This document shows positions 3,719 through 50,703 of a DNA stretch of 55,247 nucleotides, in pieces; the first letter of the stretch is position 1; the number at the start of each line of letters is the position of its first letter. The notes beneath the pieces were generated by a model. The model was given only the letters and a program-made list of their open reading frames with translations. It ran no database searches and was not told where the DNA came from. A program made the translations under genes and the position numbers. The DNA lies in contig JAUWNL010000003.1 of assembly GCA_030612665.1 (NCBI GenBank), positions 1-55,247 of the forward strand, given 5' to 3'. Source of the stretch: an archaeon. GTDB taxonomy: Archaea; Nanobdellota; Nanobdellia; Pacearchaeales; UBA284.

Positions 3719-3729
3719 TGCGGGAGACA
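3719..3729 (-). repeat. 11-bp direct repeat of tRNA-Leu 3' end (att-like)
   Basis: TGCGGGAGACA identical to 4545-4555. Confidence 0.8.
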
Positions 3730-3826
3730 CGCAGAAAATTATCTTAGCATATCGCTAAGATTTAGCTTTTTTAATCTTTTTAATTTTATCATTCTAATGA
3801 GTCCTAATATTTATAATTTTTCTTTT

Positions 3827-4186
3827 TTAATTTAAATCTAAACTTATTTTAATTGCTAAATCTACTTTCTTCAAAATATAAGGATCCAAAGAACCAATTT
3901 TTTTTATCAATCTTGTTCTATCAATTGTTCTGATTTGGTTTAATAGAATAGTTGAATCTTTGTTTAATTTAGAATCTTTCTTAAGAATAAAAACATTTGT
4001 AGGAAACTCCTTTTCATAAACTTTTGAGGTAATTGCAGCAACTATTGTTATTGGAGAATGTTTATTAGATATATCATTTTGAATTATTAATACAGGCCTA
4101 ATCCCCCCCTGTTCACTTCCTTTTATTGGTTCTAAATTTGCAAGAAAAATTTCTCCTCTTTTTGGAATCATATTTACCATTCCCAT
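3827..4186 (-). CDS. mazF: PemK/MazF family toxin (endoribonuclease)
   Basis: RGEIFLANLEPIKGSEQGGIRPVLIIQND...QIRTIDRTRL signature. Confidence 0.95.
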   Translation of the reverse strand: MGMVNMIPKRGEIFLANLEPIKGSEQGGIRPVLIIQNDISNKHSPITIVAAITSKVYEKEFPTNVFILKKDSKLNKDSTILLNQIRTIDRTRLIKKIGSLDPYILKKVDLAIKISLDLN

Positions 4187-4404
4187 TCATCTAAATTTTC
4201 TATTGCTTCAAACTCTTTTGCAATCTTTAAATTTTCTTTTGCCATCTCTTTACAACCTTCTATTAAAAGTTGCTTTTGTTCTCTCCTATTTTTTTCAGCA
4301 ATTTTCATTAGATCTAAAATTACTTCTTCATAAGTTTCTTTATTAGTCTTCATTTTATCTAAAGCATTCTTAACATTTTCATTAAGCTGTATGGTGGTTA
4401 TCAT
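4174..4404 (-). CDS. Cognate antitoxin (ribbon-helix-helix-like)
   Basis: TTIQLNENVKNALDKMK...ETYEEVI RHH-like N-terminus; LIEGCKEMAKENL MazE/EndoAI-like C-terminus; overlaps mazF. Confidence 0.8.
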   Translation of the reverse strand: MITTIQLNENVKNALDKMKTNKETYEEVILDLMKIAEKNRREQKQLLIEGCKEMAKENLKIAKEFEAIENLDEWEW

Positions 4405-4406
4405 TT

Positions 4407-4427
4407 AACTATAGAATTTCTATAGTT
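4407..4427. promoter_or_regulatory. Perfect inverted repeat, putative TA autoregulatory operator
   Basis: AACTATAGAA-T-TTCTATAGTT between the TATA box (TTTATAAA 4426-4433) and the antitoxin start. Confidence 0.7.
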
Positions 4428-4544
4428 TATAAATATTTTGTTTTTAAGTCTTAAGGGTTTATTTTCATGGTTTTATTATTGTTCTTATATTTTTATACGC
4501 CCTATGGAGGGTGTACATCCCATGAAAATGCTAGAAAGATAGTA

Positions 4545-4628
4545 TGCGGGAGACAGGGTTCGAACCTGCGTAGGCACTAAGCCACAGGATCTTAAGTCCT
4601 GTTCGTTTGACCACTCCGACACTCCCGC
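4545..4628 (-). tRNA. tRNA-Leu(TAA)
   Basis: Cloverleaf; CAGGA-CTTAAGA-TCCTG anticodon arm; long variable arm; CCA not encoded. Confidence 0.96.
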
Positions 4629-4671
4629 ATACGAGAAAAAGAGAAAAGAAAGTATAAAAATTTAACTCTTG

Positions 4672-23073: not shown

Positions 23074-23091
23074 TTAAGCCAGCTCACCCCA
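23074..23091 (-). repeat. Relic copy of aIF2-gamma 3' end (WGELA*)
   Basis: TGG GGT GAG CTG GCT TAA vs TGG GGT GAA CTT GCA TAA at 23931-23948. Confidence 0.8.
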
Positions 23092-23100
23092 AAAAATAAT

Positions 23101-26351: not shown

Positions 26352-26353
26352 TT

Positions 26354-30258: not shown

Positions 30259-30309
30259 TTATTGTTTTACTTCAATCTTCTTAATTCCCATCTCCTTCAA
30301 CTGGGCTTT
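30259..30309 (-). pseudogene. Relic copy of cca 3' end (KAQLKEMGIKKIEVKQ*)
   Basis: Matches intact cca C-terminus KSQLKEMGIKEIKEVK* at 31725-31775. Confidence 0.85.
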
Positions 30310-30310: not shown

Positions 30311-31522
30311 TTAAAGCAATAACCATTTCCAAACTGGTCGCACAATCAACTTTTTGCCCCCAACCAAGAACTCATCTTCTTGATTAAAAGTCAAAATTAA
30401 ACCCTCACTTAAACTAAACCTCTTTAAAGCATTTACTAATCCTTCTATTTCCCTGTCTTTATTTTCTTCAGTTAAATCAAAACAAACTTGAATTGCCCCA
30501 GTAATTTTATCTTTTTCTTTGACTACAAAATCACATTCATTTTTTTCCTGAAAATAAAAAATATTTTTGAATCTTCTTCTCAAGCCTAAGAAAACAGCAT
30601 TTTCTAGCATCTTTCCTTTATCCTTTGAGAAAGAAGCAGAATTTGCATAAGAGAAGCCATTATCAATTGAATAGACTTTTTTTGGATTTACTTGTTGCTG
30701 CTTGTATGAATAACTAAATCTTGGGATTGTGAATATTAAATAAGAATTCTCGAAATGAGATATATAATCAATAACACTCTGAACTGACTTGATTTTAAAC
30801 ATCTTCTTTATAGAATTATAAGAGAATTCTTTTCCTACATTGCTAATGAGATAAACTGCAATTTTGTTAAGTACATCTGTATTTTTTATGCCAAACCTGA
30901 CAGCAACATCTTTCATAACTACATCTGAAAGCAGCTCATGATTAATAGCAGGATCATCTTTTTTCAGATATTCTGGAAAACCTCCTTTGTTCAAATATTC
31001 CTCGAAAGATTCTGCTGACGGCCTCTTCTTTTTCATATCCAAAAATTCCCTATATGAAAATGGAAATAATTCTAACTGTAGGTGCCTGCCAGTCAGTTTT
31101 GTTCCGAGCTCAGTGCTTAACAGAGAGGCATTAGAACCTGTTATCAAGACTTTTTCCTTTTTGTCAATCAAATATCTTATGAATTTCTCCCATTTTTTAA
31201 TGTTCTGGATTTCATCAAAAAAATATATTCCTCCTTCACCATATAACTCTTTCATTATCTGCTCGGCTTTGTTAAAATCAGAAAGCTCAAAATCCCCCAA
31301 TCTGGGGTCTTCAAGATTGAGATAGCAGCCTCTTTTCTGTTTTTTTAAAATCTGGTGGAGAAAAGTGCTTTTTCCACATCTCCTTATTCCTGTAATCAAA
31401 AGAGCAAAGGAGTCCCTAATTTTAATGTCTTTTATTTTCTCTCTCAAAATGCCAAGATCTAATCTGTTTAAAGACTCTCTTTGCGCAAGTATTACTTCTT
31501 TAAGCATGTCACGTGTTATCAT
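30311..31522 (-). CDS. AAA_14 / DUF4143 ATP-binding protein
   Basis: GIRRCGKS, FFDEIQ, ITGSNA, LTGR, GGFPE, ENAVF, ECDFV...IQVC. Confidence 0.92.
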   Translation of the reverse strand: MITRDMLKEVILAQRESLNRLDLGILREKIKDIKIRDSFALLITGIRRCGKSTFLHQILKKQKRGCYLNLEDPRLGDFELSDFNKAEQIMKELYGEGGIYFFDEIQNIKKWEKFIRYLIDKKEKVLITGSNASLLSTELGTKLTGRHLQLELFPFSYREFLDMKKKRPSAESFEEYLNKGGFPEYLKKDDPAINHELLSDVVMKDVAVRFGIKNTDVLNKIAVYLISNVGKEFSYNSIKKMFKIKSVQSVIDYISHFENSYLIFTIPRFSYSYKQQQVNPKKVYSIDNGFSYANSASFSKDKGKMLENAVFLGLRRRFKNIFYFQEKNECDFVVKEKDKITGAIQVCFDLTEENKDREIEGLVNALKRFSLSEGLILTFNQEDEFLVGGKKLIVRPVWKWLLL

Positions 31523-31724: not shown

Positions 31725-32984
31725 TTACTTCACTTCTTTTATCTCCTTTATCCCCATTTCTTTGAGCTGACTTTTGGGAATTCTCCTAATGAGTTTTTTC
31801 ATATCAAAAATCTTTCTCTGTGCTTTAGCATATAATCTCTTGTTCTTTACAAAGGTTTTTTTCCATGTTTTTTTGAATTTCTTAATATGTTTTTCAGGGA
31901 TATTCAATGGAGGCCCAGCAATAACATAATTTTTTTCTGGTTCTTTGTAAATAAAATAAAATTTTGCTTCTAGATTTTTCTCAGAAAATCCAAAAATACT
32001 TCTTATAACTTTAAAACCATTTTTTTTAAGAATAAATTGCAGATATTCATAGAATTTCCTTGTTTTGCTACCAGCAACATCAACTTTCTTTTTTAATGTA
32101 GTAACTTGAATTGTCACAAATTTTGCTTTGTTTCTCTTTGTTTCTTTCTTTAATGCTTCAATGTTTATTTCATGTTTAAAAAAATATGATTCTGAAGATC
32201 TTTTCAAGTATTTTTTGGCGACTTTAATAAATTTTTCAAGTGTCTTAAAACTAAGAGCAGCTGCAGCATTCCTATCTTTCTGAACAGGATCAATAAGAAT
32301 GATTGGTGAATGAAGTTTTGCTTTGTTTAATGAATGCATTACTTGTGCTTTGCTTGAATAATATTTCTTAGGATCAATAACTATTTTTTCTTTTCCATTC
32401 CATTTTGTCATTGCTCTTAGGAACTTCATGAATGAGCCATAATAACAAACAAGAACTTCAAGAACATAACCACTAAATCCGCGGATGTAGGATTCAGCTC
32501 CATAACAATCAGCACTATAGCTAAATGCCTTGGCAAGCCTAATTTCATCAGCAAGTTTCTTATTCTTTTTTATCTTACTTAGAATATAAGTGACATGAAG
32601 AGGCGAGACATCAGTAATATTTACTGCTTCTTCTGCTTTCTTGATTTTAAGTATTGGAACTAATTCAATTGTAATTTTATTGATTTTGACTTGAAAATAA
32701 TCCCTAGAACCATGAAGTCTTATTGCCTTGATTTTATGTTTTTTTAAAATCTTGCTTAGAAAATCAGCAAGTTTATGGCTCTGCTTAGCCATCTTATAAG
32801 GAAACATGACAAAAACATCCACATCATAACCTTTATCTCTCTTGACAAGAGTTTTCTTGGCATAACTTCCTCCAATAAAAAGTTCTATTCCTCTGCCTTT
32901 AATCTTCATAACTCTGTTTAGAGCTTCTTTTATCTCATCAAGATCTTTTTTCTCAGGCCTTATTTTTTCAAATACTTTTTTCAT
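31725..32984 (-). CDS. cca: CCA-adding enzyme (archaeal class I)
   Basis: GGSYAKKT...DVDVF, DVSPLH, YGAESYIRGFSGY, IDPVQKDRNAAAAL. Confidence 0.93.
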   Translation of the reverse strand: MKKVFEKIRPEKKDLDEIKEALNRVMKIKGRGIELFIGGSYAKKTLVKRDKGYDVDVFVMFPYKMAKQSHKLADFLSKILKKHKIKAIRLHGSRDYFQVKINKITIELVPILKIKKAEEAVNITDVSPLHVTYILSKIKKNKKLADEIRLAKAFSYSADCYGAESYIRGFSGYVLEVLVCYYGSFMKFLRAMTKWNGKEKIVIDPKKYYSSKAQVMHSLNKAKLHSPIILIDPVQKDRNAAAALSFKTLEKFIKVAKKYLKRSSESYFFKHEINIEALKKETKRNKAKFVTIQVTTLKKKVDVAGSKTRKFYEYLQFILKKNGFKVIRSIFGFSEKNLEAKFYFIYKEPEKNYVIAGPPLNIPEKHIKKFKKTWKKTFVKNKRLYAKAQRKIFDMKKLIRRIPKSQLKEMGIKEIKEVK

Positions 32985-32986: not shown

Positions 32987-33400
32987 TTATTTCAACCCCT
33001 TTTTAATTATATAAATTAATTCCTTTATATCTTTTTCTAATTCTTCTGTAATTGAATGGAAAACAATTTCATCATCTATACTGCCATACTCATGAGCAAT
33101 TATATTTCTCATACTCTTTGCGTCTTTAAGTTTTTCTGTAAGTTCAGACGAAATTATTTTATTTTGTAAAAGAATATCAAATGCATGTAAATCACTTTCT
33201 GGAAGAGATAACCTTCTTTCTTTAATAAATAAAAATGTTAAATCAATTACTGCTTCTATAATTATTTCAGCATATCTCTCACATGCAGCTTTTGCCTTTA
33301 AATCGTGAATATATTCTTTTAGATTAATTGGTCTTATTTCATTAAGTTCAGATAAATATTTTTCTATATCTTTAATTTTATCTTTAATTCTTTCGTTCAT
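32987..33400 (-). CDS. HEPN/DUF86 (HepT-like) RNase toxin
   Basis: RNIIAHEY = RX4HXY motif; start MNERIK. Confidence 0.9.
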   Translation of the reverse strand: MNERIKDKIKDIEKYLSELNEIRPINLKEYIHDLKAKAACERYAEIIIEAVIDLTFLFIKERRLSLPESDLHAFDILLQNKIISSELTEKLKDAKSMRNIIAHEYGSIDDEIVFHSITEELEKDIKELIYIIKKGLK

Positions 33401-33890
33401 ATAAAACTTTCCCCTTATTATCAATTTCTTTTTTTATTTTATCTGGAAGAATATTATAAACCTGTATTTCTATTTTTTTGTTTACTTTTCTTAAAATATC
33501 TAATCTAAATTGCATAGCTTCTTTTTTTGTAATTTGAAAAAATTCTACTGCAAGGTCTATATCAGAAGATAAAGTTAACTGGCGTTCTACTATTGACCCA
33601 AACAAAATAATTCTTTTTATTCTTTTGAAATATTTGCTTTCTAGAATAACTTCTTTTGCTTCGGAAATCATCTCTTTGATTATTGCTCCATGTTTGAGTT
33701 GAAAATCCTTAACAAATGGTGCAAGTGCATTAATTGCTTCAAACTTTTTTCTTATATCTCGAGAAAGCCTTGTTTTTTCTGAAGCTTTCAAACTCACTCC
33801 AAGCAATTGCTTCTCAATAATCTTTAACTCTCTCTTTCCAAATATTTTCCTTAGATTTTCGTCCTTTTTAACAACACTTAATAAATTCAT
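33384..33890 (-). CDS. Minimal nucleotidyltransferase (MNT/MntA-like) antitoxin with N-terminal extension
   Basis: LFGSIVERQLTLSSDIDLAV = GSX10DXD; overlaps HEPN gene. Confidence 0.9.
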   Translation of the reverse strand: MNLLSVVKKDENLRKIFGKRELKIIEKQLLGVSLKASEKTRLSRDIRKKFEAINALAPFVKDFQLKHGAIIKEMISEAKEVILESKYFKRIKRIILFGSIVERQLTLSSDIDLAVEFFQITKKEAMQFRLDILRKVNKKIEIQVYNILPDKIKKEIDNKGKVLYERKN

Positions 33891-33895: not shown

Positions 33896-33932
33896 TATCT
33901 CCATTGTGATAATAGTTATCAGCATAGCGATA
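33896..33932. promoter_or_regulatory. Two TATC-N8-GATA boxes, putative MNT-HEPN operator
   Basis: 33896-33911 and 33917-33932, between the TATA box and the start codon. Confidence 0.5.
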
Positions 33933-33939
33933 TATTTAA

Positions 33940-33999
33940 ATCTTTCTTTTCTGGCCTTATTTTTTCTAATACTTTTTTCATTTCAGTTTCTTTTCTCAT
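33940..33999 (-). pseudogene. Relic copy of cca 5' end (MRKETEMKKVLEKIRPEKKD)
   Basis: 38/42 nt identical to 32943-32984 (MKKVFEKIRPEKKD); retains GAGGT RBS at 34003-34007. Confidence 0.88.
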
Positions 34000-36757: not shown

Positions 36758-39088
36758 ATGACAAAAATACCAAAGAAATTTTTATTGGCGTCTGTGTTTC
36801 TATTGTTATTAATCCCAATTATTCCCCTCGTAGCAGCTGATTTTTCTATAGAAACAGAAATGACTACTAATTCTGTATGCCCAACCCATACAATTCTTAT
36901 ACAAGATATAGTAACTAGTACTGTGAATGCTCCATACAGTGTGACAATCACAGGTCCTGCTGCGTCATTCACAACTGCAGTGCCTCCAGGTTTTTATCTT
37001 GAAGCAGGCCAGAGCCAAACTGTTTTCTTATATATAACACCTCCAAGTAGCACCATGCCTAACACATATGAATTAATTGTTACTATTGAAAGCCAAGGCA
37101 CAAGCAAACAAGTAACTCATGATATTATTGTTGAAAATTGTCATAGTACGTCATTAACAGCCTCACCAAAGACAATTGAGATTTGTTCATGTGATGAAAC
37201 TGACGTTATTCTTACTCTTGAGAATCAGGGAGAGTATCTTGAAGAATATGAATTATCTGCTGAAGGTTTTGCAAGCAGCTGGATAACTCTATCTTCTGAT
37301 GAAATTGACTTGCTGCCTGATAGCAGCATAGATCTTACTGCACATATCCAAGTTCCTTGTGGAAAAGCAGGAGATTATGAAATCACTTTTAATGTTGAAT
37401 CAAAAAATTCTATAGCAGAAGCATCTGACAATGTTCTTATCAAAGTTTATCCTTGTTATGATTTTATTATTAGTACAGAAAAAACTCTTTATGAAGTATG
37501 TGAGAAAAATGATATAATAATTCCTGTTTCAATTAAAAATCTTGGAACTCAAGATAACACTTATAAAATAAATTTTGATGGTCCAAATTGGGCAAGTATT
37601 GATATGAAAGAAATCTCAATCAACAAAGGAGAATCAGACTCATTCAATATAAATGTAGCCCCACCATTAAGAACAACAGGTCAGTTCACACTCGAATTAG
37701 AAATAATGTCAATAAATGGCAAAGTCATAAAAAAAGAAGAAATCACAATTGATTCAATAAAATGTTATGATTTTTCTATAAGTATTGAAGAAGAACAAGA
37801 AATAATTTGTAATGGTCTTAGCACTACTTACGCTATTGATCTTAAAAACTATGGCAAGTTTGATGCAACATACTCCATAGTTCTTGAAGGACCTTCATGG
37901 GCAACTCTCAGCCAAGATGAAATTTTCTTAAATCCTAATGAAAAGAAATCACTAACACTTACTGTTGCACCCCCAGAAAATACTTTTGCTCAATCTTATG
38001 AAATAAAAATAAAAGCAACAGACCAAGAAACAAAGCTTAGTGGAGAAGATTCTTTGAGTGTTACAACAGCTACACAAAAACAATGTTATCAACCTTTCAT
38101 TACAACTGAAAAAGAAATCTTTGAAGTAGCACGAGACAATACTGCTACAGCATTATTTATAATTGAAAACAAAGGAACTCAAGAAGGAATTTATGATATT
38201 GTCGTTACTGGCACAGCCACACAATTCTCCCAGATAAATCCTGGAACTATTACAATAAAACCAGCAAAAGCTGAAAATCTTTATCTTTATATTGCTCCAT
38301 CTCCAGATGTGGATCTTGGAACTTACACTGCTACTATAACAGCAAGACTCAAAGATTCGACAATTCTCGCAACAAAAACAATCACAATTAATGTTATTGA
38401 AGGAAAAGAAACAGAACCAACAGTAACACCAGCTCTTGATCTCGGAAAAATATGGGGCAATATTATAAATTTCTTCAAAGGCATTTTCACATTTGAAAAA
38501 GAACCAGAAGATGAAGTTATAATAATTGGCGAAGGCGAAGCTGAAGCTGAAGCTGAAGCAGAAAGTGAAAGCGAGGCAGAAGCTGAAGCAGAAGGAGAAT
38601 CAGAAGGCGAGGGTGAACCAGTTACTGGAACTGCTCCTTATCTTGTTAAAGACATTCCAAACATTAAAATAGGAATTAATGAAGCTTATACTCTTGACCT
38701 TAATGAATATTTTGGAGACCCAGATGATGATGCTTTATTTTATACTGCAGTCAAGCCTATCAACATAACTCTTCAAATGGTTCAAAACGTTGTAACAATA
38801 AAACCAGAGAATGGTTTTGAAGGTGAAAGAATAATTATCTTTTATGCAAGTGATGGAGTAGATACAGTAACAAGCAATGACATTACAATAACTGTTGGTC
38901 AAGCAACTGAAAAAGAAGTTGCAATAGATTTTGCAAGAATCCTAAGTGATTATAAATATTATTTTATTGGCGCTGCAATTATTATTCTCATTATCATAAT
39001 TCTTTTAAGCGGACTTGGAGAGAAAATTGTTGATTTCTTTGAAGAAGAAGTTGAAGAAAAACCAAAGAATAACAATAAGAAAAAATAA
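36758..39088 (+). CDS. Large cell-surface protein with tandem Ig-like repeats, (EA/EG)n linker and C-terminal TM
   Basis: About 4 repeats with Cys pairs and LENQG/IKNLG/LKNYG/IENKG; DLNEYFGDPDDD Ca-binding-like module. Confidence 0.75.
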   Translation: MTKIPKKFLLASVFLLLLIPIIPLVAADFSIETEMTTNSVCPTHTILIQDIVTSTVNAPYSVTITGPAASFTTAVPPGFYLEAGQSQTVFLYITPPSSTMPNTYELIVTIESQGTSKQVTHDIIVENCHSTSLTASPKTIEICSCDETDVILTLENQGEYLEEYELSAEGFASSWITLSSDEIDLLPDSSIDLTAHIQVPCGKAGDYEITFNVESKNSIAEASDNVLIKVYPCYDFIISTEKTLYEVCEKNDIIIPVSIKNLGTQDNTYKINFDGPNWASIDMKEISINKGESDSFNINVAPPLRTTGQFTLELEIMSINGKVIKKEEITIDSIKCYDFSISIEEEQEIICNGLSTTYAIDLKNYGKFDATYSIVLEGPSWATLSQDEIFLNPNEKKSLTLTVAPPENTFAQSYEIKIKATDQETKLSGEDSLSVTTATQKQCYQPFITTEKEIFEVARDNTATALFIIENKGTQEGIYDIVVTGTATQFSQINPGTITIKPAKAENLYLYIAPSPDVDLGTYTATITARLKDSTILATKTITINVIEGKETEPTVTPALDLGKIWGNIINFFKGIFTFEKEPEDEVIIIGEGEAEAEAEAESESEAEAEAEGESEGEGEPVTGTAPYLVKDIPNIKIGINEAYTLDLNEYFGDPDDDALFYTAVKPINITLQMVQNVVTIKPENGFEGERIIIFYASDGVDTVTSNDITITVGQATEKEVAIDFARILSDYKYYFIGAAIIILIIIILLSGLGEKIVDFFEEEVEEKPKNNNKKK

Positions 39089-39100
39089 GTTTCTAGTATT

Positions 39101-41494
39101 CTAAACCTTCAAACTAATTATTCTACTGATACCTTCATGCATTGTGGCTCCATAAAGAGTATCTGCTTGGCTCATTGTTGCATCATTATGGCTGATTATT
39201 ATATATTGAGATTGTTTTATATGGCTTCTTAATAATGAAGAAAGCTTTTCACTGTTGTGTTTATCAAGAGCTGCATCAATCTCATCGAGAATATAAAAAC
39301 AATAAGGCTTGAATTCTTGAATAGCGAAAATAAAGGAGATAGCTACAATAACTTTTTCCCCTCCTGATAACGATGAGGCATCAACTTCTTTACCCTTTCC
39401 AATTTTCACGATTATGTCAACTCCACCAGAAAAAGGATCTTGTTTGTTTTCAAGTTCTAACAAGGCTTTGCCTTTATCACTAAGCTTTATAAAATTATTG
39501 CCAAACCCTTCATTAAGTCTATTGAAAGTTTCCATAAAAGAACTTTTCTTTTTTTTGTCTACTTCATCAATAATCTTTAGGATTTCATCTTTCTCTTCCT
39601 TGAGCTTGTTAACTTTTTCTAGAATTTCATCATATTCTGCCTTGACCTTATCATAAACCTCCAGGGCCCTGAGGTTGACTGAACCAATTTCATCAATTTC
39701 TTTTATAGCTCTTCTGAGTTTATTTTCAAAATCAAATCTAGTTCTTCCTTTACTGATTTCTTTTATTTTTTCTTCTATATCCTTATACTCTTGAAACTCG
39801 CTTGTGAAAGCCTCTTGTTCAGCATCTATCTTAGCTTTTTCAATCCTTAAGTTATTAACTTCATTTTCTATAATCTTTGCATTACTTTCCTTAGCAACAA
39901 CATTTTTTTCATGTTCCTTGAGTTGCTCCCCCAGTTTGCTTTTCTTTTCAAGGAGTTTTTGAAATTCCCCTGTAAGACGTTTGCCTACTTTTTCTTTATC
40001 AAATACTTGCTTTTCTTTAATTCCTTTTTCTTTGAGCATTTTTTCCACAGAAGATTTAATTTCCTGTTTTTCTTTAGTGCTTTTCTTTATAATATTTCTA
40101 ATTTTATCAATATCTTTTTTTGCAAGACTTATTTCAAGATCAATATCTCGCCTTTGAGGAATTTTTTCCATATCTATTGTTTCAAGAACTTTGTCAAGCC
40201 TTTCTATATCTATTTTTCCGATTTTTTCAAGCTTTTTACAGTCTTTATCTATTTCTTTGATAATTTCCTGAACTTTTGGGGTGAGATTATAAATATCTTT
40301 TTCATCAATAAGTTTCTGGAGCTCTTGACGATATCTCTCCATTTTCCCAATAAAATCAGAAATTAATGAAAAGTTAGTGGCTGCCTGCTTAATCTTTTCA
40401 ACTATTTTTTTAATCTCAGCCTTATAGTCAATAACCTCATACCCTTCACCCCTCTCGCTTTCAAGTTTTTCAATTTCTTTGAGTATAGAGGTAATTTCAT
40501 TATTCAAACCTATCATCCTTTTTTCTATGTTGCTGTATTGTTCTTTATAATGTTCAAGCTTAATATTAACAACTGCACTTTCTGATTTAAGATCAGAAAT
40601 TTGATTGAACAATGATTCTTGTTCAACTCCAGACGTGCTCTTTATATTTTCATCAATCTCATTTACTTGTTTTTTTATCTTATTAATTTCTTCTTGAATA
40701 ATATTGACTTTATTATTTTGTTTTCCAATAATTTTTTCCTTCTCTCCAATTTTCTTGTTGAATCTAGCTCCCAAATTTTCTTTTTCCCCCATTTTCTTGA
40801 AAATAAGGCAAGCCTTATATCTTCGAATAGCTTTCTTAAGATTTTTATATTTCAATGCCTGTGCTCTTTCTTTATCAAGATTTCTTAAGTAGGCTGTTCT
40901 CTGATTGAGAATGATTTCAACTTCCTTGAGCTTGTTCTCAGTCTTTTCTAATTCTCTAAGACTTCTCTTCTTACGTTCTTCATAGATACTAATTCCTGCA
41001 ATATCTTCGATAATCCCACGTCTTTCTTCAGAATGCATTTTAACAAATTGGTCAATTTCTGCCTGAAGAATTATGTTGAAACCATAAGGGTCAATTCCCG
41101 CCTGTGCCAAAAGCTCTAGGACTTCTTGCCTGGTTTTAGTTTGATTATTTATTTTATAGATGCTTGAACCAGTTTTCTTTACAATTCTGGATATTGCAAC
41201 TTCTTTTTCTGGCAACGAAAAAGTATTGTCAGAATTATCAAAAACCATAGTTACTTTAGCTTGTTGTGCAGCTTTCCCTTCTTTACCTCCATGAAAAATC
41301 AAGTTAGAGGCTCTCAAAGCCCTCATACTCTTAACCCTTAATCTTCCAAGAACAAAACAAATAGCGTCAGCTAAGTTACTCTTGCCTGCTCCATTAGGTC
41401 CAACCACAACATTCAAACCTTTTTCAAGCAAAAGATCAGTTGGATGAGCAAATGACTTGAAACCTTGAAGTGTTAATTTTTTTATATGTGGCAT
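39101..41494 (-). CDS. smc: SMC-family ATPase (short, 797 aa)
   Basis: GFKSF, GPNGAGKSN, VNLRA, LSGGEK, ILDEIDAALD, IISH. Confidence 0.9.
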   Translation of the reverse strand: MPHIKKLTLQGFKSFAHPTDLLLEKGLNVVVGPNGAGKSNLADAICFVLGRLRVKSMRALRASNLIFHGGKEGKAAQQAKVTMVFDNSDNTFSLPEKEVAISRIVKKTGSSIYKINNQTKTRQEVLELLAQAGIDPYGFNIILQAEIDQFVKMHSEERRGIIEDIAGISIYEERKKRSLRELEKTENKLKEVEIILNQRTAYLRNLDKERAQALKYKNLKKAIRRYKACLIFKKMGEKENLGARFNKKIGEKEKIIGKQNNKVNIIQEEINKIKKQVNEIDENIKSTSGVEQESLFNQISDLKSESAVVNIKLEHYKEQYSNIEKRMIGLNNEITSILKEIEKLESERGEGYEVIDYKAEIKKIVEKIKQAATNFSLISDFIGKMERYRQELQKLIDEKDIYNLTPKVQEIIKEIDKDCKKLEKIGKIDIERLDKVLETIDMEKIPQRRDIDLEISLAKKDIDKIRNIIKKSTKEKQEIKSSVEKMLKEKGIKEKQVFDKEKVGKRLTGEFQKLLEKKSKLGEQLKEHEKNVVAKESNAKIIENEVNNLRIEKAKIDAEQEAFTSEFQEYKDIEEKIKEISKGRTRFDFENKLRRAIKEIDEIGSVNLRALEVYDKVKAEYDEILEKVNKLKEEKDEILKIIDEVDKKKKSSFMETFNRLNEGFGNNFIKLSDKGKALLELENKQDPFSGGVDIIVKIGKGKEVDASSLSGGEKVIVAISFIFAIQEFKPYCFYILDEIDAALDKHNSEKLSSLLRSHIKQSQYIIISHNDATMSQADTLYGATMHEGISRIISLKV

Positions 41495-41539: not shown

Positions 41540-41559
41540 ATTATTTAAAATTTATTATG
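41540..41559. repeat. 20-bp direct repeat, left copy (smc promoter)
   Basis: ATTATTTAAAATTTATTATG identical to 44433-44452. Confidence 0.75.
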
Positions 41560-41602
41560 GTGGAAAAGAAAGATATTTATAACATTTTACTTGAATACAT
41601 CT

Positions 41603-43189
41603 ATGAAAAAGTGGGGGATCTTTGGAATTTTGATATTAGTATTCCTTACAATTATTTTTATTAGCGGCTGTATTGAAGAAGATATTGAGAATATTCCTGA
41701 ATCTGAATTGCAAGAAATATGTGCAGGAGAATCCTGGCCTTCTGATGGTTGTAATGTTATAGAGGATTTACAAGGGAGACAATTATGTGAAAAATGTAAG
41801 GAGTTGTTAGGTTATGTAAAAACCGATGGTGAAGGCCCAGAAGGAGGAGTAGCATCTAATTCTCAATTTAGTCTTATTGAAGGTGACAGTGAAAGTTGGA
41901 TGGTAGTAGAATCAATAATTGGAGTATATGTACCAAGCCCAACATGGTTTAGATTTGATTATCTAAATGAAGGGCCATCTTTAAGATGCAAACAATTTGC
42001 AAACTTAGAAAATGCTCAAAATAATGTTAAGCCATTAGGTGAAGCAGTTGTAGATTATGTTGGAACAACAACTGAACCTTATTTATTTGAATTTGGTGAA
42101 CGAGGTACAACTTTTGTTAATTTAGTTGTTGGTGTTTTAAACTTTCCTCCAAATAATTATGCTATTTATCAGGGTGAAGCAGAAGAAGTACAAGAAGATG
42201 GTTATCCTATACCAAAAGAAGGCCTTGAAGCAGAGGCGATTTTTAGTGCTGATAATATAGTTCAGGTTACTTCTTTTACAGGAGAAGGATTATCTGCTGA
42301 TCCGGACTTTAGTCCAGATGGAAGACAGATAGCTTTTAGTAGACTTACTAAAACAGGTGAGGATAAAAATGGAAATATGTATATTATAAATATCGATGGA
42401 ACAGGGCTCACTAAAATCGGACATGAATATCTTTATGATCCTTCTTGGAGTCCTATTGATAATAGAATATTATGTTATGGAGGAGAAGATAGTGATTTAT
42501 ATATAATTGATTTAAATGTAGATAAAACAAATGCAGTTCCTTTTGGCATGAAAAACTCACATTTAGCAATATGGAGTCCTGATGCAACAAAGATTGCTTA
42601 TGCAGTTTATGATAATAGTAATGCACCTGTCCCATCAAGTGATCCAACTTGTGATGGAACAGGAGTTTTAGGTTCAATTTGGATTATGAATTCTGATGGA
42701 ACTGGAAAAACTCAATTAACAACTGAAGAAGAGGGTTATTGCAGTGGTCCATCTTTTAGTCCAGATGGCTCAAAAATTGTTTATAACAAAGGATTCATTC
42801 ATGGCAGTACACCTTTTTTAATTCACAGACCAGCACATGAAATTTGGGTAATGAACAGTGACGGCTCAAACAAGCATGCAATCTATAAACCAGAAGCTAG
42901 CATACATTATATGTATCAAAATGCTTGGAGTAAAAATAATGAAATTATGTTTCCAAGAATTTGGTGGAAAAGAAGACCTCAAATATGGAGTATAAACTCT
43001 GATGGAACTAATCCTCAATGTTTGATTAAAGTTCCAGAACTTTCTCAACCAGAAGATGCTGCTCATGAATTTATGTATGGCGATGTTGCCTGGGATAAAA
43101 CTGGAACTAAAATAGTATCAACACAAGAAATAAATCCAGGACCAGATATTTATGAGGATTGCAATATTGTTATATTTTCTTTAGAATGA
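41603..43189 (+). CDS. TolB-like beta-propeller putative lipoprotein
   Basis: FISG|C lipobox; PD40 repeats (PDFSPDGRQIAF, WSPDATKIAY, FSPDGSKIVY). Confidence 0.85.
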   Translation: MKKWGIFGILILVFLTIIFISGCIEEDIENIPESELQEICAGESWPSDGCNVIEDLQGRQLCEKCKELLGYVKTDGEGPEGGVASNSQFSLIEGDSESWMVVESIIGVYVPSPTWFRFDYLNEGPSLRCKQFANLENAQNNVKPLGEAVVDYVGTTTEPYLFEFGERGTTFVNLVVGVLNFPPNNYAIYQGEAEEVQEDGYPIPKEGLEAEAIFSADNIVQVTSFTGEGLSADPDFSPDGRQIAFSRLTKTGEDKNGNMYIINIDGTGLTKIGHEYLYDPSWSPIDNRILCYGGEDSDLYIIDLNVDKTNAVPFGMKNSHLAIWSPDATKIAYAVYDNSNAPVPSSDPTCDGTGVLGSIWIMNSDGTGKTQLTTEEEGYCSGPSFSPDGSKIVYNKGFIHGSTPFLIHRPAHEIWVMNSDGSNKHAIYKPEASIHYMYQNAWSKNNEIMFPRIWWKRRPQIWSINSDGTNPQCLIKVPELSQPEDAAHEFMYGDVAWDKTGTKIVSTQEINPGPDIYEDCNIVIFSLE

Positions 43190-44163
43190 AATCAAAATAT
43201 ATTGTGATTGGAATAATAATTTTAGTGATAATAGTTGGGGTTATTTTTATTATTAATCCTTTTAAACAAGAAGCAGAAACAGGAGATGGGGGAAATGGAC
43301 AAACATCTGAATCTGTTGAACCTCTTGAAGTAACCCAGCTCACTTCTTTTGAAAATGCTATTGACCCAGATTGGAGCCCTGATGGAAGCCAAATTGTTTT
43401 TTGTCGTATGCAGGGGCAGACTCAAACTCTATACTTAATCAATGCTGATGGAACTGGACTCACAGAAATTGGCCTGGGGTTTGACCCATCCTGGAGTCCT
43501 GTAGAAGATAACATAGCATACGAATTGAACAATCAGATTTACACTATGAACTCTGATGGGAAGGACAATTCTCCATTGACAACTGAGCCAAGCAATTCCC
43601 AGCCTGCTTGGAATCCAGATGGAACTAAAATTGCATATACTCATTATGAATCTGGAAAACCATCAATTTGGATAATGAATTCTAATGGAACAGAAAAAAC
43701 TCAACTTACTACAGAAGAGGATGAGCCATGTTCCTGGCAGTCTTTTAGTTATGATGGCTCAAAAATCGTTTATATTAAAGGACAAGTATGGTATCCTAGT
43801 TCTGAAAGATTTCCAAAAGTGCCAAATGAGATTTGGATTATGAATAATGATGGCTCAAACAAACATCAGATATATGCTCCAAGTGATACTTATCAGTGGA
43901 TATTCCAACGAGCATGGAATAAAAATGAGGAGATTATATTTGGAACATCTCCCCTCCAAGAAATAAAAATTCCAGAAATTGGGATTATAAATAGTGATGG
44001 TAGTAATCTTAGATTTATACTTAATCCTCCAATGGATTCTTTAGGTATGCCTGAATGTATTTATGGTGATACTGTTTGGGATAATTTTGGGACTAAAATA
44101 GCACTCACTAAAAAAATGATAGATGGACCAATCAACATCGCTACTGTTTCTTGGGAAGAATAA
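43186..44163 (+). CDS. TolB-like beta-propeller protein, paralog of upstream gene
   Basis: N-terminal TM; PDWSPDGSQIVF, PAWNPDGTKIAY; shares KTQLTTEE and EIW.MN.DGSNKH with upstream gene. Confidence 0.85.
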   Translation: MKSKYIVIGIIILVIIVGVIFIINPFKQEAETGDGGNGQTSESVEPLEVTQLTSFENAIDPDWSPDGSQIVFCRMQGQTQTLYLINADGTGLTEIGLGFDPSWSPVEDNIAYELNNQIYTMNSDGKDNSPLTTEPSNSQPAWNPDGTKIAYTHYESGKPSIWIMNSNGTEKTQLTTEEDEPCSWQSFSYDGSKIVYIKGQVWYPSSERFPKVPNEIWIMNNDGSNKHQIYAPSDTYQWIFQRAWNKNEEIIFGTSPLQEIKIPEIGIINSDGSNLRFILNPPMDSLGMPECIYGDTVWDNFGTKIALTKKMIDGPINIATVSWEE

Positions 44164-44432: not shown

Positions 44433-44452
44433 ATTATTTAAAATTTATTATG
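44433..44452. repeat. 20-bp direct repeat, right copy
   Basis: Identical to 41540-41559. Confidence 0.75.
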
Positions 44453-44499
44453 CTGAATTAAACGATACTCTTTTATACTTCTTGTCCCTATTTTTTATT

Positions 44500-47117: not shown

Positions 47118-47199
47118 GCCGGGATGGCCCAACGGTAAGGCGCAAGGTTGCTAACCTTGTTTCCGCAAGGATATCTGGGTTCGATTCCCAGTCCCGGCG
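47118..47199 (+). tRNA. tRNA-Ser(GCT)
   Basis: CAAGG-TTGCTAA-CCTTG anticodon arm; long variable arm; G discriminator. Confidence 0.96.
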
Positions 47200-47253
47200 T
47201 TTTAGAATTCTTAATAAACATTAATAATTAAAAAAGAAAAGATTTTTATTATT

Positions 47254-49050
47254 CTACCTGAAACCATAATGTTTCTTATGTACTGAAAAGTTGATTTCAA
47301 AGGGAAACTTAATCTTTTTTCTGAAGATAAATCCAAGAATTCCTGTTGCTACAATTACAGCTCCAACAATTATCCAAGCCCAGACTGGCAAGCCTAGCCA
47401 CCATTTGTTTCCTATCCAATCAAACTTAATTTTTTCTTCAATCCATTCTTTAACATCATTATATGCTCTTTCAAACCACTGGAAAACTATGAACTTAGAA
47501 GATTTTTCACACGAGTTATTTATACATTCAAAACCTAAAGCACATCCACAATCTTGGCAACAGGTTGTTGAATTTTCATCAGGGTCACAAATACCATCAC
47601 CACATCCTGGTCCTGTTCCTACAGTTTCTCCAGTTATCCTTTTATCAGAGACAATTACAAAATCACTGAACCCAGGACTTTCAGCTTCAAAGAAAGCGTA
47701 ATTTATTTCATCTTGACTTAAGTCTTCTGTATCAAGTTCTTCCCAGCCTTCCTTGTATCTGTTGAGATTAGTCGTATCCCTGTGATGATCATAGAAGAAT
47801 GATTTAGCAATAGAAAATTCTATATTAACACTTGTCAAATCCTCGTCACTAATTCCAGTTGGTTCTATCTGGAAATATTTGTAAACCTTATTATCCTCAG
47901 AATATTTTGTTACACCAGCAGTCGTAATACTAATAACTTGTTTTACTTTCAAACAAGTATTACTCAAAGCTTTATTTGGAATAATTGTAATTTTTCTTAT
48001 TCCAATTTCCTCATTATCAACTTCATAATCTATTGTTGCTCCAGCTTCGAGAATATCCCAACATTTTTCTTCTGTTCTTGGTTCTGGCTCTCCTTCTCCC
48101 TCGCCCTCGCCTTCGGCTTCACCCTCACTTTCTGCCTCACCTTCTGCTGGTGGTTCTTCGAGGACAGTGTAATTTGCAGTCACCCGATGAAAATTTCCTG
48201 CTCTATCAGTTGCTGTGAAGGTTGCAGTTTTTTGTCCAGCACTGTTTGTATTACATCCAGTTCCAGAACAAGTTATTTCATTATCAAGATTATCTGTAGC
48301 AGTGCAATTACAGTTTATGGATTGATCTATATCATATTCAGAATCATTTGCAACCCCCGTACTGGTTATTACTGGATCAGTCCAGTCTATGGTTAAAGTT
48401 CTTGTTTCACTTGAATTTATTCTTTTGAGAGTATCATTACAGGTAATATTCCAAGTATGGTGCCCTTCAGGAAGATTTGTCTGAAAAAAATTATTTTGAG
48501 AACCATTTAATAAAGGAATTTGTGTGGATGTTAGATTAGTTATATTTTTTTGTTCTGTTACATTCCAAGTCAAATAGCAAGTATGTAATAGAACATCTGA
48601 GGGAGTGTAATCAAATGAAATATTTGTTGAAGGTGTATTTAAATTATTTATAGGATCATTTAAATTAATTACAGGAAAAGTGTTATCAACTATGACATTT
48701 GTGCTTATATCTGAAGCTTCAGTATATTCATCAAGAAGTGCTGCTCTCCCAATTGCATTAAATGTATAAGTACCATCACTTAATTGGATAGAATTATTAT
48801 CACAAATAAAAGTCTTGTCTGTACTACTTGCAGTATCATTAAAACAAATAAGAGTCCATTCAGGATTGTTGCTGTAAAAAGATACATTATCAGCAATTCC
48901 AGTAATTGTTGTATTAAAAGTATAAGTTCCATTTATTACATCCTCATCTGCAGGAGCATTTAAGGTAATTCCACTAATCTCTGCAATTGCAAAACATGCC
49001 AGAAGAATTATGATAATTGTTGATGAAAAAATTAAATATTTCTTGTTCAT
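47254..49050 (-). CDS. PGF-pre-PGF domain surface glycoprotein
   Basis: Signal peptide; many N-X-S/T sites; Ig-like domains; VYKYFQI...AESPGFSDFVI; C-terminal TM. Confidence 0.85.
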   Translation of the reverse strand: MNKKYLIFSSTIIIILLACFAIAEISGITLNAPADEDVINGTYTFNTTITGIADNVSFYSNNPEWTLICFNDTASSTDKTFICDNNSIQLSDGTYTFNAIGRAALLDEYTEASDISTNVIVDNTFPVINLNDPINNLNTPSTNISFDYTPSDVLLHTCYLTWNVTEQKNITNLTSTQIPLLNGSQNNFFQTNLPEGHHTWNITCNDTLKRINSSETRTLTIDWTDPVITSTGVANDSEYDIDQSINCNCTATDNLDNEITCSGTGCNTNSAGQKTATFTATDRAGNFHRVTANYTVLEEPPAEGEAESEGEAEGEGEGEGEPEPRTEEKCWDILEAGATIDYEVDNEEIGIRKITIIPNKALSNTCLKVKQVISITTAGVTKYSEDNKVYKYFQIEPTGISDEDLTSVNIEFSIAKSFFYDHHRDTTNLNRYKEGWEELDTEDLSQDEINYAFFEAESPGFSDFVIVSDKRITGETVGTGPGCGDGICDPDENSTTCCQDCGCALGFECINNSCEKSSKFIVFQWFERAYNDVKEWIEEKIKFDWIGNKWWLGLPVWAWIIVGAVIVATGILGFIFRKKIKFPFEINFSVHKKHYGFR

Positions 49051-49333
49051 TTTCCTCTTTTGTTTCCTCTTTTATCTTGCTCTTTATAAAAAATTAAGGG
49101 AAAAATAGTTTAAATATATTTCGTTGGTACAATGCAAATATAAAACATAAAGAAATAAAAGAGGTAAAGATGTTAAAAGAATATTATGGTTATGATTATG
49201 GAAATTATGATTATAGAAACAAAGATAATCAAAATAAATACTAAATAAATACTAAAAATCTAGATTTATCTAAGATTATAAGATTAAAAACATTGGTTAA
49301 TTAAAAATCCTTATAATAAACAACAGGTAAACA

Positions 49334-50521
49334 ATGGGATTTATTGATTTTTTAAAAAAATTAATAGAAAAGAATAGAACTAAAGAGTCTGAAAGAGAAA
49401 CAGAAAAAGTGGCTTTTGATGAGATTGGAGATTGGGTTGAAAACAAAGGAAAAGAAATTAAAGATAAAGAAAAAGAGGTTTTTGTTTTGATACAGGAAAA
49501 AATTAATTTTTTTATTAATGAACTTAAGGAAAAAGCAGATATTTTAGAGAGTGTTGATGTTGATTCAATAAAGACTAAAGATAAAATTAAATCCATAGTA
49601 AATGAAGGAAGGGAAAAATACCTTGAAAAAATAAAAGATTTCTCAGAGAGTTTAAGTATATTGAAAAAAAACAACCTTGAGGAATTTATTTTGGATGTAA
49701 ACAAACTTTATTACAATTTTAGTAAGAGTTCACGTATGAGTTATGAAAGAACCACTATTTTAATTGGAAAGGAAATAGGTAATATAAAAGAGAGAGTAAC
49801 TGGTTTTTCTAAATATTTAACAAAGACATTTGATAAAAATAAAGATATTATTAATTCTTCTAAAATAATCTCTTTTATTAAATTAAAATTAAAGCATGTT
49901 ATTGAAATGGAGAGGATTCTTAAGGAAATTGATGAATCAATAACCTCTTTAGATAAAAAAATAACTGAAAAAAAACAAGAAAATAAGGAAATTATTGAAG
50001 AAATTGAAAAGATTAAAAAAGAGAAAAGTTATATTGAAAATTTAAAAAAACAAGAAAAAATTAAATTATTGGAGGGGGCGTTAGAAAAAGATATTTTCAG
50101 TTTAAGGCAACTTATTGATTTTAAAGCACTGGCTAATTTTTTCCATATTTTTGAAGAACAAATGAATATTGTAAAATCTCATAAAGAAGATTTTCAAACA
50201 AACTTTCAGGGAGATGGTGGGGCAAGCATTCTAATCCTGCTTGACGAAGCTAAATTAAATAATGAAGCAATCTTAGCCAAGATAAAACAAATTAATGACA
50301 AAAAAGACGAAATAATCAAAAATAAAGCAACAATTAAGAAAGATGAAATTGAAGATTTATTAGCTGAAATAAAAAAGATAAAATTAGAAATTGAAAAGTT
50401 AAATAACGAAAAGGCAAAAAAGCTAAAAAGAGGCGAAAGGCTTAAAATAAGCAGAGAAAAAATAATAAACTCAATAAAACAGGGGCTGGCTAAAATAAAT
50501 GTGATTATACTAGATGTTTAG
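49334..50521 (+). CDS. Coiled-coil hypothetical protein
   Basis: 395-aa K/E-rich heptad pattern. Confidence 0.7.
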   Translation: MGFIDFLKKLIEKNRTKESERETEKVAFDEIGDWVENKGKEIKDKEKEVFVLIQEKINFFINELKEKADILESVDVDSIKTKDKIKSIVNEGREKYLEKIKDFSESLSILKKNNLEEFILDVNKLYYNFSKSSRMSYERTTILIGKEIGNIKERVTGFSKYLTKTFDKNKDIINSSKIISFIKLKLKHVIEMERILKEIDESITSLDKKITEKKQENKEIIEEIEKIKKEKSYIENLKKQEKIKLLEGALEKDIFSLRQLIDFKALANFFHIFEEQMNIVKSHKEDFQTNFQGDGGASILILLDEAKLNNEAILAKIKQINDKKDEIIKNKATIKKDEIEDLLAEIKKIKLEIEKLNNEKAKKLKRGERLKISREKIINSIKQGLAKINVIILDV

Positions 50522-50703
50522 TATATAAAATCACTGAGAAAAAATTTAACTCAATGCAAATATTTTTATATCAAATCCCTCTTCTAAAATATATCTTTTG
50601 AAATATATAAATTACAGATTATAAGTTATAATATAAAGTATAATATAAAATATAAATTATAAAAAAAGAGGTAAGAGAGATAATAGAAACAAGAGAGGTG
50701 TGA

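Follow-up and report, generated by a model that had tools for sequence, protein, structure and literature searches.

Displaced ends of housekeeping and tRNA genes beside accessory cassettes in a DPANN archaeon

Cassettes and orphan gene ends in the window

The DNA considered here, called the window, is the whole of a 55,247-nt contig (C4; JAUWNL010000003.1, 31% G+C) from an archaeal genome bin that we refer to as G000 (GCA_030612665.1; 41 contigs, 667,650 nt, 83.5% complete). It carries a set of housekeeping genes; aIF2-gamma, the CCA-adding enzyme (cca), AMP phosphorylase and a Memo-family protein were identified with Pfam and NCBIfam, and others, named from their translations alone, are presumably aIF5B ('infB'), a thermosome subunit, RtcB and SMC. 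At the ends of several core genes, and of a tRNA-Leu gene, lie accessory cassettes that have an orphan copy of the neighbouring gene's end on their far side (Table 1). Gene coordinates beyond the standard open reading frame (ORF) lists come from a crude greedy ORF caller (at least 70 aa), which is not a gene finder. No congener of G000 was among the genomes compared; the nearest relatives are of other genera, with cca identities of at most 62%. G017, a complete genome of 710,724 nt, represents another genus of the same family; G013, G020 and G006 are congeners of G017.

A preliminary description of the window had listed five clear cases of a cassette with a duplicated target end. Cases 1, 3 and 4 (tRNA-Leu and the two sides of cca) stand as clear, case 2 (aIF2-gamma) is short but exceeds what its relatives show, and case 5 (near smc) is weak. 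Of two further cases that had been suggested at gene leaders, the one at infB is probably chance and the one at kef yielded nothing convincing.

The cca gene lies between two cassettes. Downstream, an ATPase gene with AAA_14 and DUF4143 domains is followed, one base past its stop, by a remnant (KAQLKEMGIKKIEVKQ and a stop codon) that matches the C-terminus of cca (KSQLKEMGIKEIKEVK and a stop codon). The pair is identical at 25 of 34 nt, includes an in-frame codon indel and has a BLOSUM score of 53, where no control reached 42; the remnant also agrees with the C-terminal motif conserved among the cca orthologues of the family. Upstream, beyond an MNT-HEPN toxin-antitoxin pair, the first 42 nt of cca (32943–32984) recur at 33940–33981 with 38 of 42 positions identical. 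Judging from these alignments, we read both cases as clear duplications. The 5' orphan carries the family-typical VLEKI and the working copy VFEKI, a mere hint that the orphan is the native end.

The HEPN toxin gene stops 2 nt before the cca start, and transcription of the toxin-antitoxin operon may therefore read through into cca. HEPN toxins include some that trim the 3' ends of tRNAs, damage that is repaired by the CCA-adding enzyme, and a functional link between this toxin and cca is possible. In most family members examined, cca stands between a CPA2/kef-like gene and AMP phosphorylase (syntenic loci L002–L019). These two genes are adjacent in G000 (52500/52566, within the region 50704–54056) and cca lies 19 kb off, at a synteny break (33982–34111) within a run of accessory ORFs; cca thus moved in the G000 lineage, and no link between this relocation and the cassettes could be made. 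The cca genes of relatives have no flanking copies, though they occupy a different locus. A metagenome contig search with cca returned one locus, at 44% identity.

The window-type ATPase is patchy, occurring in 5 of 23 other family genomes with a best match of 49% identity. When all G000 spacers of at least 40 nt were compared by blastx with the ORFs of G000 and G017, no further remnants were found beside the window cassettes except the cca 5' copy. An MNT-HEPN pair whose proteins are 55% and 72% identical to those of G000 is also present in genome G015 (locus L032, 550–1456), on the opposite strand, between orthologues of the C19 ORF 5282-7054 and the window ORF 34112-34897; this slot is broken in G000.

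At the tRNA-Leu gene, an 11-mer of its 3' end (4545–4555, minus strand) recurs exactly at 3719–3729, 97 nt past the mazF stop. The window holds just these 2 matches even at one mismatch, where 0.13 are expected and 1 of 100 shuffles reached 2, and on this count case 1 reads as a clear duplication. G017 has, at 471667–474153, two full-length tRNA-Leu-like sequences of 85 nt that are 91% identical, lie 2.3 kb apart and differ in the anticodon region; they may simply be two isoacceptors, or may result from duplication of an entire tRNA gene around inserted DNA.

At aIF2-gamma, the orphan reads FWGELA and a stop at 23074–23091. Its score of 38, weak alone, compares with a maximum of 33 in the aIF2-gamma loci of 71 relatives. 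The orthologue of the convergent ORF 22114-23034 is the first ORF downstream of aIF2-gamma in 7 of these 71 loci, the gap measuring -4 to 89 nt in six and 567 nt in one (L109); L113–L116, L118 and L125 have no ORF like the inserted one between the two genes, and four other relatives' loci have unrelated ORFs there. Given these empty sites and the lower scores in relatives, the insertion is secure and the remnant plausible. The tail of the inserted 263-aa ORF matches NCBIfam TIGR04183 with an E-value of 0.0011 and 19 bits, against a cut-off of 23.

The target genes had been described as intact, and cca, aIF2-gamma and tRNA-Leu are indeed full length and align with their orthologues to the ends. 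That the repeats share no consensus also holds: they are the ends of different genes and, by inspection, have no common sequence. No shared attC-like repeat was seen by inspection either, no formal attC search having been made. Repeat lengths run from 11 to 126 nt, so that target-site duplications of fixed length are not found; terminal inverted repeats were not systematically searched. The window has no integrase or transposase, as had been noted, and its cassettes hold toxin-antitoxin, ATPase and unknown genes only. An inventory of recombinases in the whole bin gave a tyrosine recombinase that is XerA and nothing else: a six-frame search with PF00589 produced 1 match, on contig C41, with 264 bits to XerA_Arch (cut-off 220), below the cut-offs of the integron-integrase models, and no fragments. 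Resolvase (PF00239), OrfB_IS605, DDE_Tnp_1 and Cas1 had 0 matches in the 83.5%-complete bin.

The assembly was checked independently with Logan contigs (contigs, not reads) of four sequencing runs, X1–X4, placed on positions 23001–43000. Run X1 may be the bin's own source; X2–X4 are three runs from a different study and contain 50–73% of the words of a 9-kb stretch of the window. The junction between the cca 3' remnant and the ATPase gene is bridged by X2 (29861–31534) and X3 (29861–31029), that of cca, HEPN and MNT by X2 (31536–33053) and X4 (32696–33755), and that of MNT, the 5' remnant and the next gene by X3 (33214–34931) and X1 (33029–35742). Case 2 is covered by X2 (23074–25481, beginning 1 nt before the copy) and X1 (23001–25481). 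Contigs from an independent study span the window junctions, so that these are not the assembly chimera that the preliminary description had considered. In the same stretch there is no circle joint or trustworthy empty-site joint, although contigs cannot exclude rare forms; every joint that skips sequence has at most 31 letters on its shorter side, and those by the cassettes (30047>31857, 30568>32226 and 32576>33414), with 21–25 letters, were not trusted.

Table 1. Coordinates of targets, cassettes, orphan copies and related features (positions in the window unless another contig is named)
Feature	Position	Strand	Evidence or remark
tRNA-Leu(UAA), intact	4544..4629	-	ARAGORN
mazEF-type toxin-antitoxin cassette	3827..4404	-	Pfam
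PemK/MazF toxin	3827..4186	-	Pfam PemK_toxin, E 9e-33
Small antitoxin-like ORF	4174..4404	-	Pfam DUF7557, VAPB_antitox
Orphan exact 11-mer copy of tRNA-Leu 3' end	3719..3729	-	Pattern search
aIF2-gamma, intact, ending GWGELA and stop	23931..25148	-	Pfam GTP_EFTU, eIF2_C; G017 reciprocal best hit, 74% identity
Inserted 263-aa ORF with sub-threshold T9SS-type (type IX secretion system) sorting tail	23101..23892	-	No Pfam match
Short orphan copy of aIF2-gamma 3' end	23074..23099	-	21/26 nt
cca, class I CCA-adding enzyme, intact	31725..32984	-	Pfam tRNA_NucTransf2, CAA_C
AAA_14 + DUF4143 ATPase cassette, downstream of cca	30311..31522	-	Pfam
Orphan cca C-terminus copy, 16 codons and stop	30259..30309	-	Sequence comparison
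MNT (33384..33890) and HEPN/HepT-like (32987..33424) toxin-antitoxin cassette	32987..33890	-	Pfam Polbeta/NTP_transf_2, HepT-like
Orphan cca 5' end copy (MKKVLEKIRPEKKDLNISLC and stop)	33919..33981	-	Repeat search; orphan-end search score 71
Repeat-flanked insert after EF-1alpha (contig C19, locus L090)	26306..28351		Perfect 80-nt direct repeat: last 18 nt of EF-1alpha and 62 nt downstream
Convergent stops of the 36758-39088 gene and smc; slot empty in G000	39073..39108	.	Contig joints
Left copy of AT-only promoter-like repeat	41540..41562	+	22/23; ~45 nt upstream of smc start and first PD40 gene
Two tandem PD40 (TolB-like beta-propeller) genes, enclosed by the AT-only repeat copies	41603..44163	+	Pfam PD40; no G017 orthologue
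Right copy of AT-only repeat	44433..44455	+	~48 nt upstream of 44500 ORF

Displaced ends across the genome and in a relative

For a genome-wide search for orphan ends, each ORF supplied two queries, its initial 16 residues and its final 16 with the stop, which were compared with 4 kb on either side in three frames. Hits were kept if they scored at least 42, had a non-repetitive query and lay outside called ORFs; these thresholds were set after a first look, and the controls were run under identical ones. In G000, 6 of 628 C-termini have a downstream orphan on the same strand, with 0 upstream, 0 antisense and 0 in the flanks of other genes, and 2 of 559 N-termini have an upstream copy, with 0 downstream, 0 antisense and 0 in other flanks. 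G017 has 3 C-terminal (of 645) and 4 N-terminal (of 585) orphans in the predicted direction and 2 N-terminal ones downstream, the other controls being 0. The expectation that terminal matches outnumber those of controls is thus borne out in both genomes (8 against 0, and 7 against 2). Among 79 other aIF2-gamma loci, with 520 ORFs, each of the two predicted directions has a single orphan; on the opposite sides, a C-terminus is copied once upstream and an N-terminus never downstream.

Repeats in general have the same bias in orientation. Pairs 300–6000 nt apart with at least 40 bits are direct in 22 cases and inverted in 1 in G000, and direct in 22 and inverted in 2 in G017; with at least 35 bits and no copy in a gene body, G000 has 17 direct and 0 inverted pairs, although 7 of the 17 are ends of tandem paralogues. 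The differences between copies are of a coding type. Of the 52 codons that differ among 149 in 10 pairs, 26 differ synonymously and the other 26 non-synonymously, compared with 17.6% synonymous expected from random single-base changes, and nucleotide differences are distributed 19/11/39 over the codon positions (39 of 69 at the third). This third-position bias is real, albeit partly inflated, since several pairs were found by amino-acid similarity, and it is with this ascertainment caveat alone that we accept the earlier claim that both copies were once functional alleles.

Repeats of this kind also lie on other contigs, and the perfect ones on C19 and C41 are outside both the window and the contig-checked stretch. 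The repeat at EF-1alpha on C19 encloses a 1.9-kb insert with one ATPase_2-family gene, and looks like the most recent event in the genome. On C41 a perfect 49-nt repeat stands either side of a phosphorylase-family gene, on C20 a 96-nt repeat of 97% identity stands either side of another MNT-HEPN pair, and orphan ends also follow two Fic genes. The identical core is 11 nt at tRNA-Leu, 80 nt on C19 and 49 nt on C41; the cca 3' pair has no long one, and the pair on C27 is identical at 27 of 38 nt. Cassette ORFs on C8 and C20 end within the repeat, much as the DUF4143 stop abuts the cca remnant. ORFs that run into or abut the orphan, together with repeats of varied length and unrelated sequence, point to imprecise joints. 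Most of the cargo consists of small unknown ORFs and of MazEF, MNT/HepT, Fic and DUF4143 or ATPase_2 ATPases; the latter are addictive or selfish genes, difficult to shed after they have arrived.

Contig C16 (29349–33556, locus L088) carries three tandem DUF4143 ATPase genes, 37–43% identical to the window ATPase, whose last 110–166 nt are 89–90% identical to one another. Copies of the end of the upstream 953-aa gene follow the first of them (36 nt, 97%) and the second (31 nt, 90%). Such an array suggests either that a single site received several insertions or that unequal crossing-over took place.

Insertions were surveyed between G017 and G013 with the same ORF caller at a minimum of 60 aa. 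The two genomes have 461 reciprocal best hits (median identity 77%) and 428 syntenic adjacent pairs, among which 52 clean presence/absence insertions were found, defined by a shorter spacer of at most 150 nt and a longer one of at least 400 nt. Three of the 52 have a terminal remnant above the top (50) of 768 control scores, and 3 of the 52 have an exact junction repeat of at least 18 nt, compared with 0/52 for inverted repeats and 0/156 in mismatched comparisons.

Native and incoming ends could be told apart at an Lhr-type helicase gene of G017. Downstream of it lie six metabolic genes in a 5.9-kb block that contains no recombinase, and behind this block the last ~50 codons of Lhr occur again; the block is missing in all 3 congeners (G013, G020 and G006). 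The two Lhr copies have an exact run of 111 nt in common and agree at 121 of 126 nt overall, each differing from G013 at 20–23 of the 126 positions and the run itself by ~18%. Past the run the two tails agree with each other at 15 of 28 positions, and with G013 at 20 of 28 (orphan) and 14 of 28 (working copy); the orphan tail runs on into G013-like downstream sequence. Directly left of the orphan, the next syntenic gene is represented by a diverged piece of its 5' part (score 60; 44 nt, 82% identity), and at this far joint the foreign fragment plus ~30 nt adjoins Lhr codon -53. The Lhr reading frame is unbroken across the switch. We take these alignments to show that the orphan is the native end, that the working end and the cargo are foreign, and that a stretch of resident sequence was duplicated. 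Because the foreign fragment belongs to the next syntenic gene, the donor piece would have come from a relative with the same gene order and would have ended inside that gene.

The preliminary description had proposed that cassettes bring a relative's version of the target end. The Lhr event bears this out, and the window cases may follow by analogy. Empty sites, which it had looked for in relatives, exist for Lhr in 3 of 3 congeners and for aIF2-gamma in 7 of 71 loci; cca stands at a different locus in relatives. Three other G017 targets (at 99550, 459822 and 494069) are unmatched in all three congeners and are thus accessory genes themselves.

The remaining candidates of the window are less convincing. 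The repeat of case 5 is AT-only, 6 of 100 shuffles gave at least 2 matches at up to 3 mismatches, and the case is weak; an extended duplication was rejected, as three partial matches around the copies are non-collinear. The resemblance among the infB, Memo and aIF2-gamma leaders was likewise rejected as a duplication and read as a shared promoter plus N-termini alike by chance, RKPIVAGQFYP being what we take to be a typical N-terminus of Memo-family proteins. The kef 'leader' was dropped. At 52486–52514 a near-identical 14-mer directly follows the final 14 nt (with the stop) of the kef-like gene, and could be a minimal terminal duplication, the footprint of a lost neighbour, or chance in purine-rich sequence.

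The convergent ends of the 36758-39088 gene and smc form a slot that is empty in G000 and in G013, holds different genes in G020 and G006, and has a gene plus a C-terminal remnant (score 65) in G017, where the tails of the 36758-39088 orthologue are ambiguous in the polarity comparison. In a near-identical strain in X2, 1119 other letters replace 34 nt of it. Scars of this kind flag recurrent insertion slots at convergent gene ends. In the same strain, 494 and 412 letters of other sequence, of similar length, replace the ORFs 29408-29860 and 26091-26351 (spans 29382–29860 and 26075–26353). An acidic GEAEAE-type repeat at 38499–38630, in a large surface-protein-like gene, is strain-variable: X2 and X3 contigs have 30 nt more after 38571, and X2–X4 have 6 nt more after 38499. 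Finally, several contig ends (window 2–121, which matches the start of a pilin-like ORF on C8, and ends of C8, C9, C11, C12, C16, C20, C22, C26, C27, C28 and C34) encode stretches 98–100% identical to ORF ends of other contigs; these are probably assembly-graph overlaps, usable for contig ordering.

Origin of the displaced ends

We consider it somewhat probable that the scars arose by terminal displacement through homology-facilitated illegitimate recombination (HFIR) or a one-ended break repair to the same effect. A linear DNA from a related archaeon would bring a shared gene's end and, with it, the accessory genes that neighbour this end in the donor. On one side the incoming piece would recombine in register with the resident gene, which serves as a homologous anchor; on the other side it would be joined illegitimately to resident DNA slightly upstream of, or at, the anchor point. 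The resident gene would run on into the incoming end and stay functional, the cargo would follow, and the original gene end would be pushed behind the cargo as the orphan, with a mirror image at 5' ends. Where the illegitimate joint lies upstream of the homologous switch, the native end would survive. The enzymology and the route of DNA entry we infer, and one-ended break repair copied from foreign DNA, then completed by end joining, could give the same product. Terminal displacement would explain the directionality, the intact targets, the unrelated repeats, their lengths of 11–126 nt, the cassette ORFs that continue into the orphan and the coding-type differences between copies. The architecture, its directionality and the empty sites are seen directly in the genomes.

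A number of observations weigh against this reading. The polarity was seen in one event and in another genus; the window cases may have the same polarity as Lhr, by an analogy drawn because no congener of G000 was compared. Gene conversion between the Lhr copies could mimic the identical 111-nt run. The tRNA-Leu, 80-nt C19 and 49-nt C41 repeats look equally like classical att sites, and the C20 MNT-HEPN pair sits inside a duplicated 125-nt unit of gene end, spacer and next gene start, which looks more like a staggered-break duplication or an excised circle re-integrating. Nine DUF4143 loci, seven in relatives and two in G000, have no remnant scoring at least 38 within 1.5 kb. The Pfam models of ComEC and DprA have no match in the 83.5%-complete bin, which leaves it with no known DNA-uptake route. 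Lastly, ~4 of the 52 clean G017/G013 insertions (~8%) bear the scar: it is a minority signature, and most gene gain occurred without such a trace. At this frequency, the earlier notion of a general, integron-like route of gene acquisition is not supported.

Site-specific integration, by integrases that act in trans or have since been lost, would make the repeats the attL and attR of stripped-down elements. Integrases classically target tRNA 3' ends such as the one here with its exact 11-nt core, the perfect 80-nt and 49-nt repeats enclose single-gene inserts (at EF-1alpha and around the C41 gene), toxin-antitoxin genes could survive the decay of the rest of an integrated element, and some relatives have extra tyrosine recombinase matches (G009 has 5, one of them in a 410-aa frame). 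However, the single PF00589 match of G000 is a XerA equivalog on a contig other than the window's, without fragments elsewhere; at least 10 unrelated target sequences would have to be served in a genome of ~0.7 Mb; and the cca 3' pair lacks an identical core beyond a few bases. The Lhr insert, moreover, has a foreign gene tail and a next-gene fragment, not expected of a fixed attP, and its six metabolic genes include no recombinase. We regard this explanation as unlikely overall; for tRNA-Leu and the perfect repeats, integrases in trans are possible.

The preliminary description had offered, beside homology-anchored capture, a Campbell-type single crossover in which a small circle carrying the target end and a cassette is integrated by host recombination over a few tens of bases. 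This would yield the same gross architecture and require no dedicated enzyme. The C20 cassette in its duplicated 'empty-site' unit is what is expected of an excised circle re-integrating, and the next-gene 5' fragment directly beside the 3' orphan in G017 could be a circle joint. Yet a circle would call for an Lhr donor identical to the recipient over 111 nt and very different in the next 28 nt, and no circle joints or trustworthy empty-site joints were seen in the X1–X4 contigs, rare forms not being excluded by contigs. Since the 111-nt identity stands beside diverged tails, capture fits better than a circle, unless gene conversion homogenised the run, and we think the circle distinctly unlikely.

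More doubtful still is the idea of an active, integrase-free mobility, in which nucleases of the cassettes would cut core-gene ends in cassette-free cells, a homing-like but homology-guided cassette drive. The DUF4143 domain is predicted to have a restriction-endonuclease-like fold, and the DUF4143 ATPases and the nuclease toxins of toxin-antitoxin pairs could, from their predicted activity, be candidates. Repair from a cassette-bearing relative could then bring the cassette plus a replacement gene end, and the 2-nt coupling of HEPN and cca would belong to such a strategy.

We find it very improbable that the repeats arose without foreign DNA, by local tandem duplication over a gene end followed by differential loss or replacement. 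A duplication running from the 3' part of one gene to the 5' part of the next does yield the G017 junction in which a 5' fragment of the second lies beside a 3' fragment of the first, and tandem paralogues are common in G000 (the PD40 pair, the three C16 DUF4143 genes and pilin-like genes); it leaves unexplained why the working tail of Lhr is foreign, why the cca pairs diverge in a coding-like way, and why the cargo is missing from all three congeners and from the second copy. Chance matches in AT-rich sequence (case 5 is AT-only, with p ~0.06 in shuffles, case 2 involves 6 codons, and the infB/Memo likeness is promoter-like) or a strain chimera in a 41-contig metagenome bin are scarcely credible as a general account, given 8 matches in the predicted direction against 0 in the G000 controls, the junctions bridged in X2–X4 (remnant/DUF4143, cca/HEPN-MNT and MNT/5' remnant/next gene) and diverged copies with no common k-mer able to mislead an assembler; they are largely refuted for cases 1, 3 and 4 and may apply to case 5 and the leaders.

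The genomes of DPANN archaea are tiny, and G000 is almost without recognisable mobile elements, yet these archaea have many patchy toxin-antitoxin and ATPase genes, for which we know of no entry route. Under terminal displacement, displaced ends would be a readable scar left by DNA of a related lineage whose genes stood in the same order. Such ends would give the direction of an event (native orphan versus incoming working end) and its exact joints, and their decay could in principle date it. If the polarity of the G017 event holds widely, the scars would provide evidence from nature that Archaea capture foreign genes through one-sided homology, a process so far described, to our knowledge, solely for bacterial experiments and polymorphic-toxin loci. 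At cca, a core gene has been moved into an accessory island and placed where it may be read through from a toxin-antitoxin operon.

Comparison with known systems

A direct repeat of a gene end around an insertion is familiar from integrase-type elements. Phage 21 and e14 in icd supply a synonymously diverged replacement gene end. PMC4482086 describes integrase-borne insertion into a gene end for the dusA 5'-end islands, and tRNA-targeting islands and tycheposons are further elements of the integrase type. As in these elements, the scars show the gene end repeated directly on either side of the insert, and an intact target. All of these elements carry or rely on a site-specific recombinase with a fixed attachment site, whereas here none was found besides XerA, and targets and lengths are heterogeneous.

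Cis-mobilizable elements (CIMEs) are integrase-less islets flanked by att sites, and archaeal 'gene capture' was reportedly described by She et al. in 2001. The microcin H47 island is a small gene set with direct repeats and no recombinase of its own, according to PMC3191183 and PMC5426353. CIMEs and H47 derive from, or are mobilised by, integrase-bearing elements; the repeat-bounded sets here are without their own recombinase too. SSV-type capture leaves split integrase fragments at its borders, and none were found in the six-frame search of G000. Integrons, including archaeal ones, add promoter-dependent cassettes serially at a fixed place and shift the older ones along (PMC9668308; the analogy is drawn in PMC5361080). 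Unlike these, G000 has no integron integrase, and its insertion sites are scattered over the genome.

The closest parallels involve no dedicated recombinase. HFIR was reportedly first described in Acinetobacter, Pseudomonas and Streptococcus, and its usual product deletes recipient DNA. In the bacterial systems treated in PMC3240628 and PMC5361080, one end of a linear foreign DNA is integrated via homology and the other is joined illegitimately. As in HFIR of transformable bacteria and in E. coli conjugation, non-homologous cargo would enter the archaeal genomes without a dedicated recombinase; the differences are that the scars are natural and archaeal rather than products of bacterial experiments, that part of the target is duplicated and the native end survives, and that no DNA-uptake genes were found in G000.

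Displacement of Rhs C-termini was reportedly described by Jackson et al. in 2009. For Rhs loci and type VI secretion system (T6SS) effector-immunity arrays, PMC5361080 sets out that incoming DNA with a conserved gene part brings a new 3' end, that the old 3' end and its partner are displaced as orphans, and that HFIR is proposed. The targets there are polymorphic toxin genes, whose variable tips are exchanged. Here, by contrast, housekeeping genes (cca, aIF2-gamma, the Lhr helicase and a PP-loop ATPase) and a tRNA are targeted, the displaced end and its replacement share one encoded function, and what is delivered is the adjacent cassette.

The route had not been recognised as described for DPANN, and its logic is already in print for bacteria, as the HFIR and Rhs/T6SS material in PMC5361080 illustrates. 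The phrase 'illegitimate recombination' was not found in the DPANN-lineage literature searched, which does not prove that the matter is unpublished, and the main text of a 2026 paper on variable hotspots of ANME-1 contains neither 'direct repeat' nor 'integrase'. What is already known is thus the displacement process, in bacteria; what is new are its candidate scars at housekeeping genes and a tRNA gene in DPANN archaea, with toxin-antitoxin and ATPase genes as the principal cargo.

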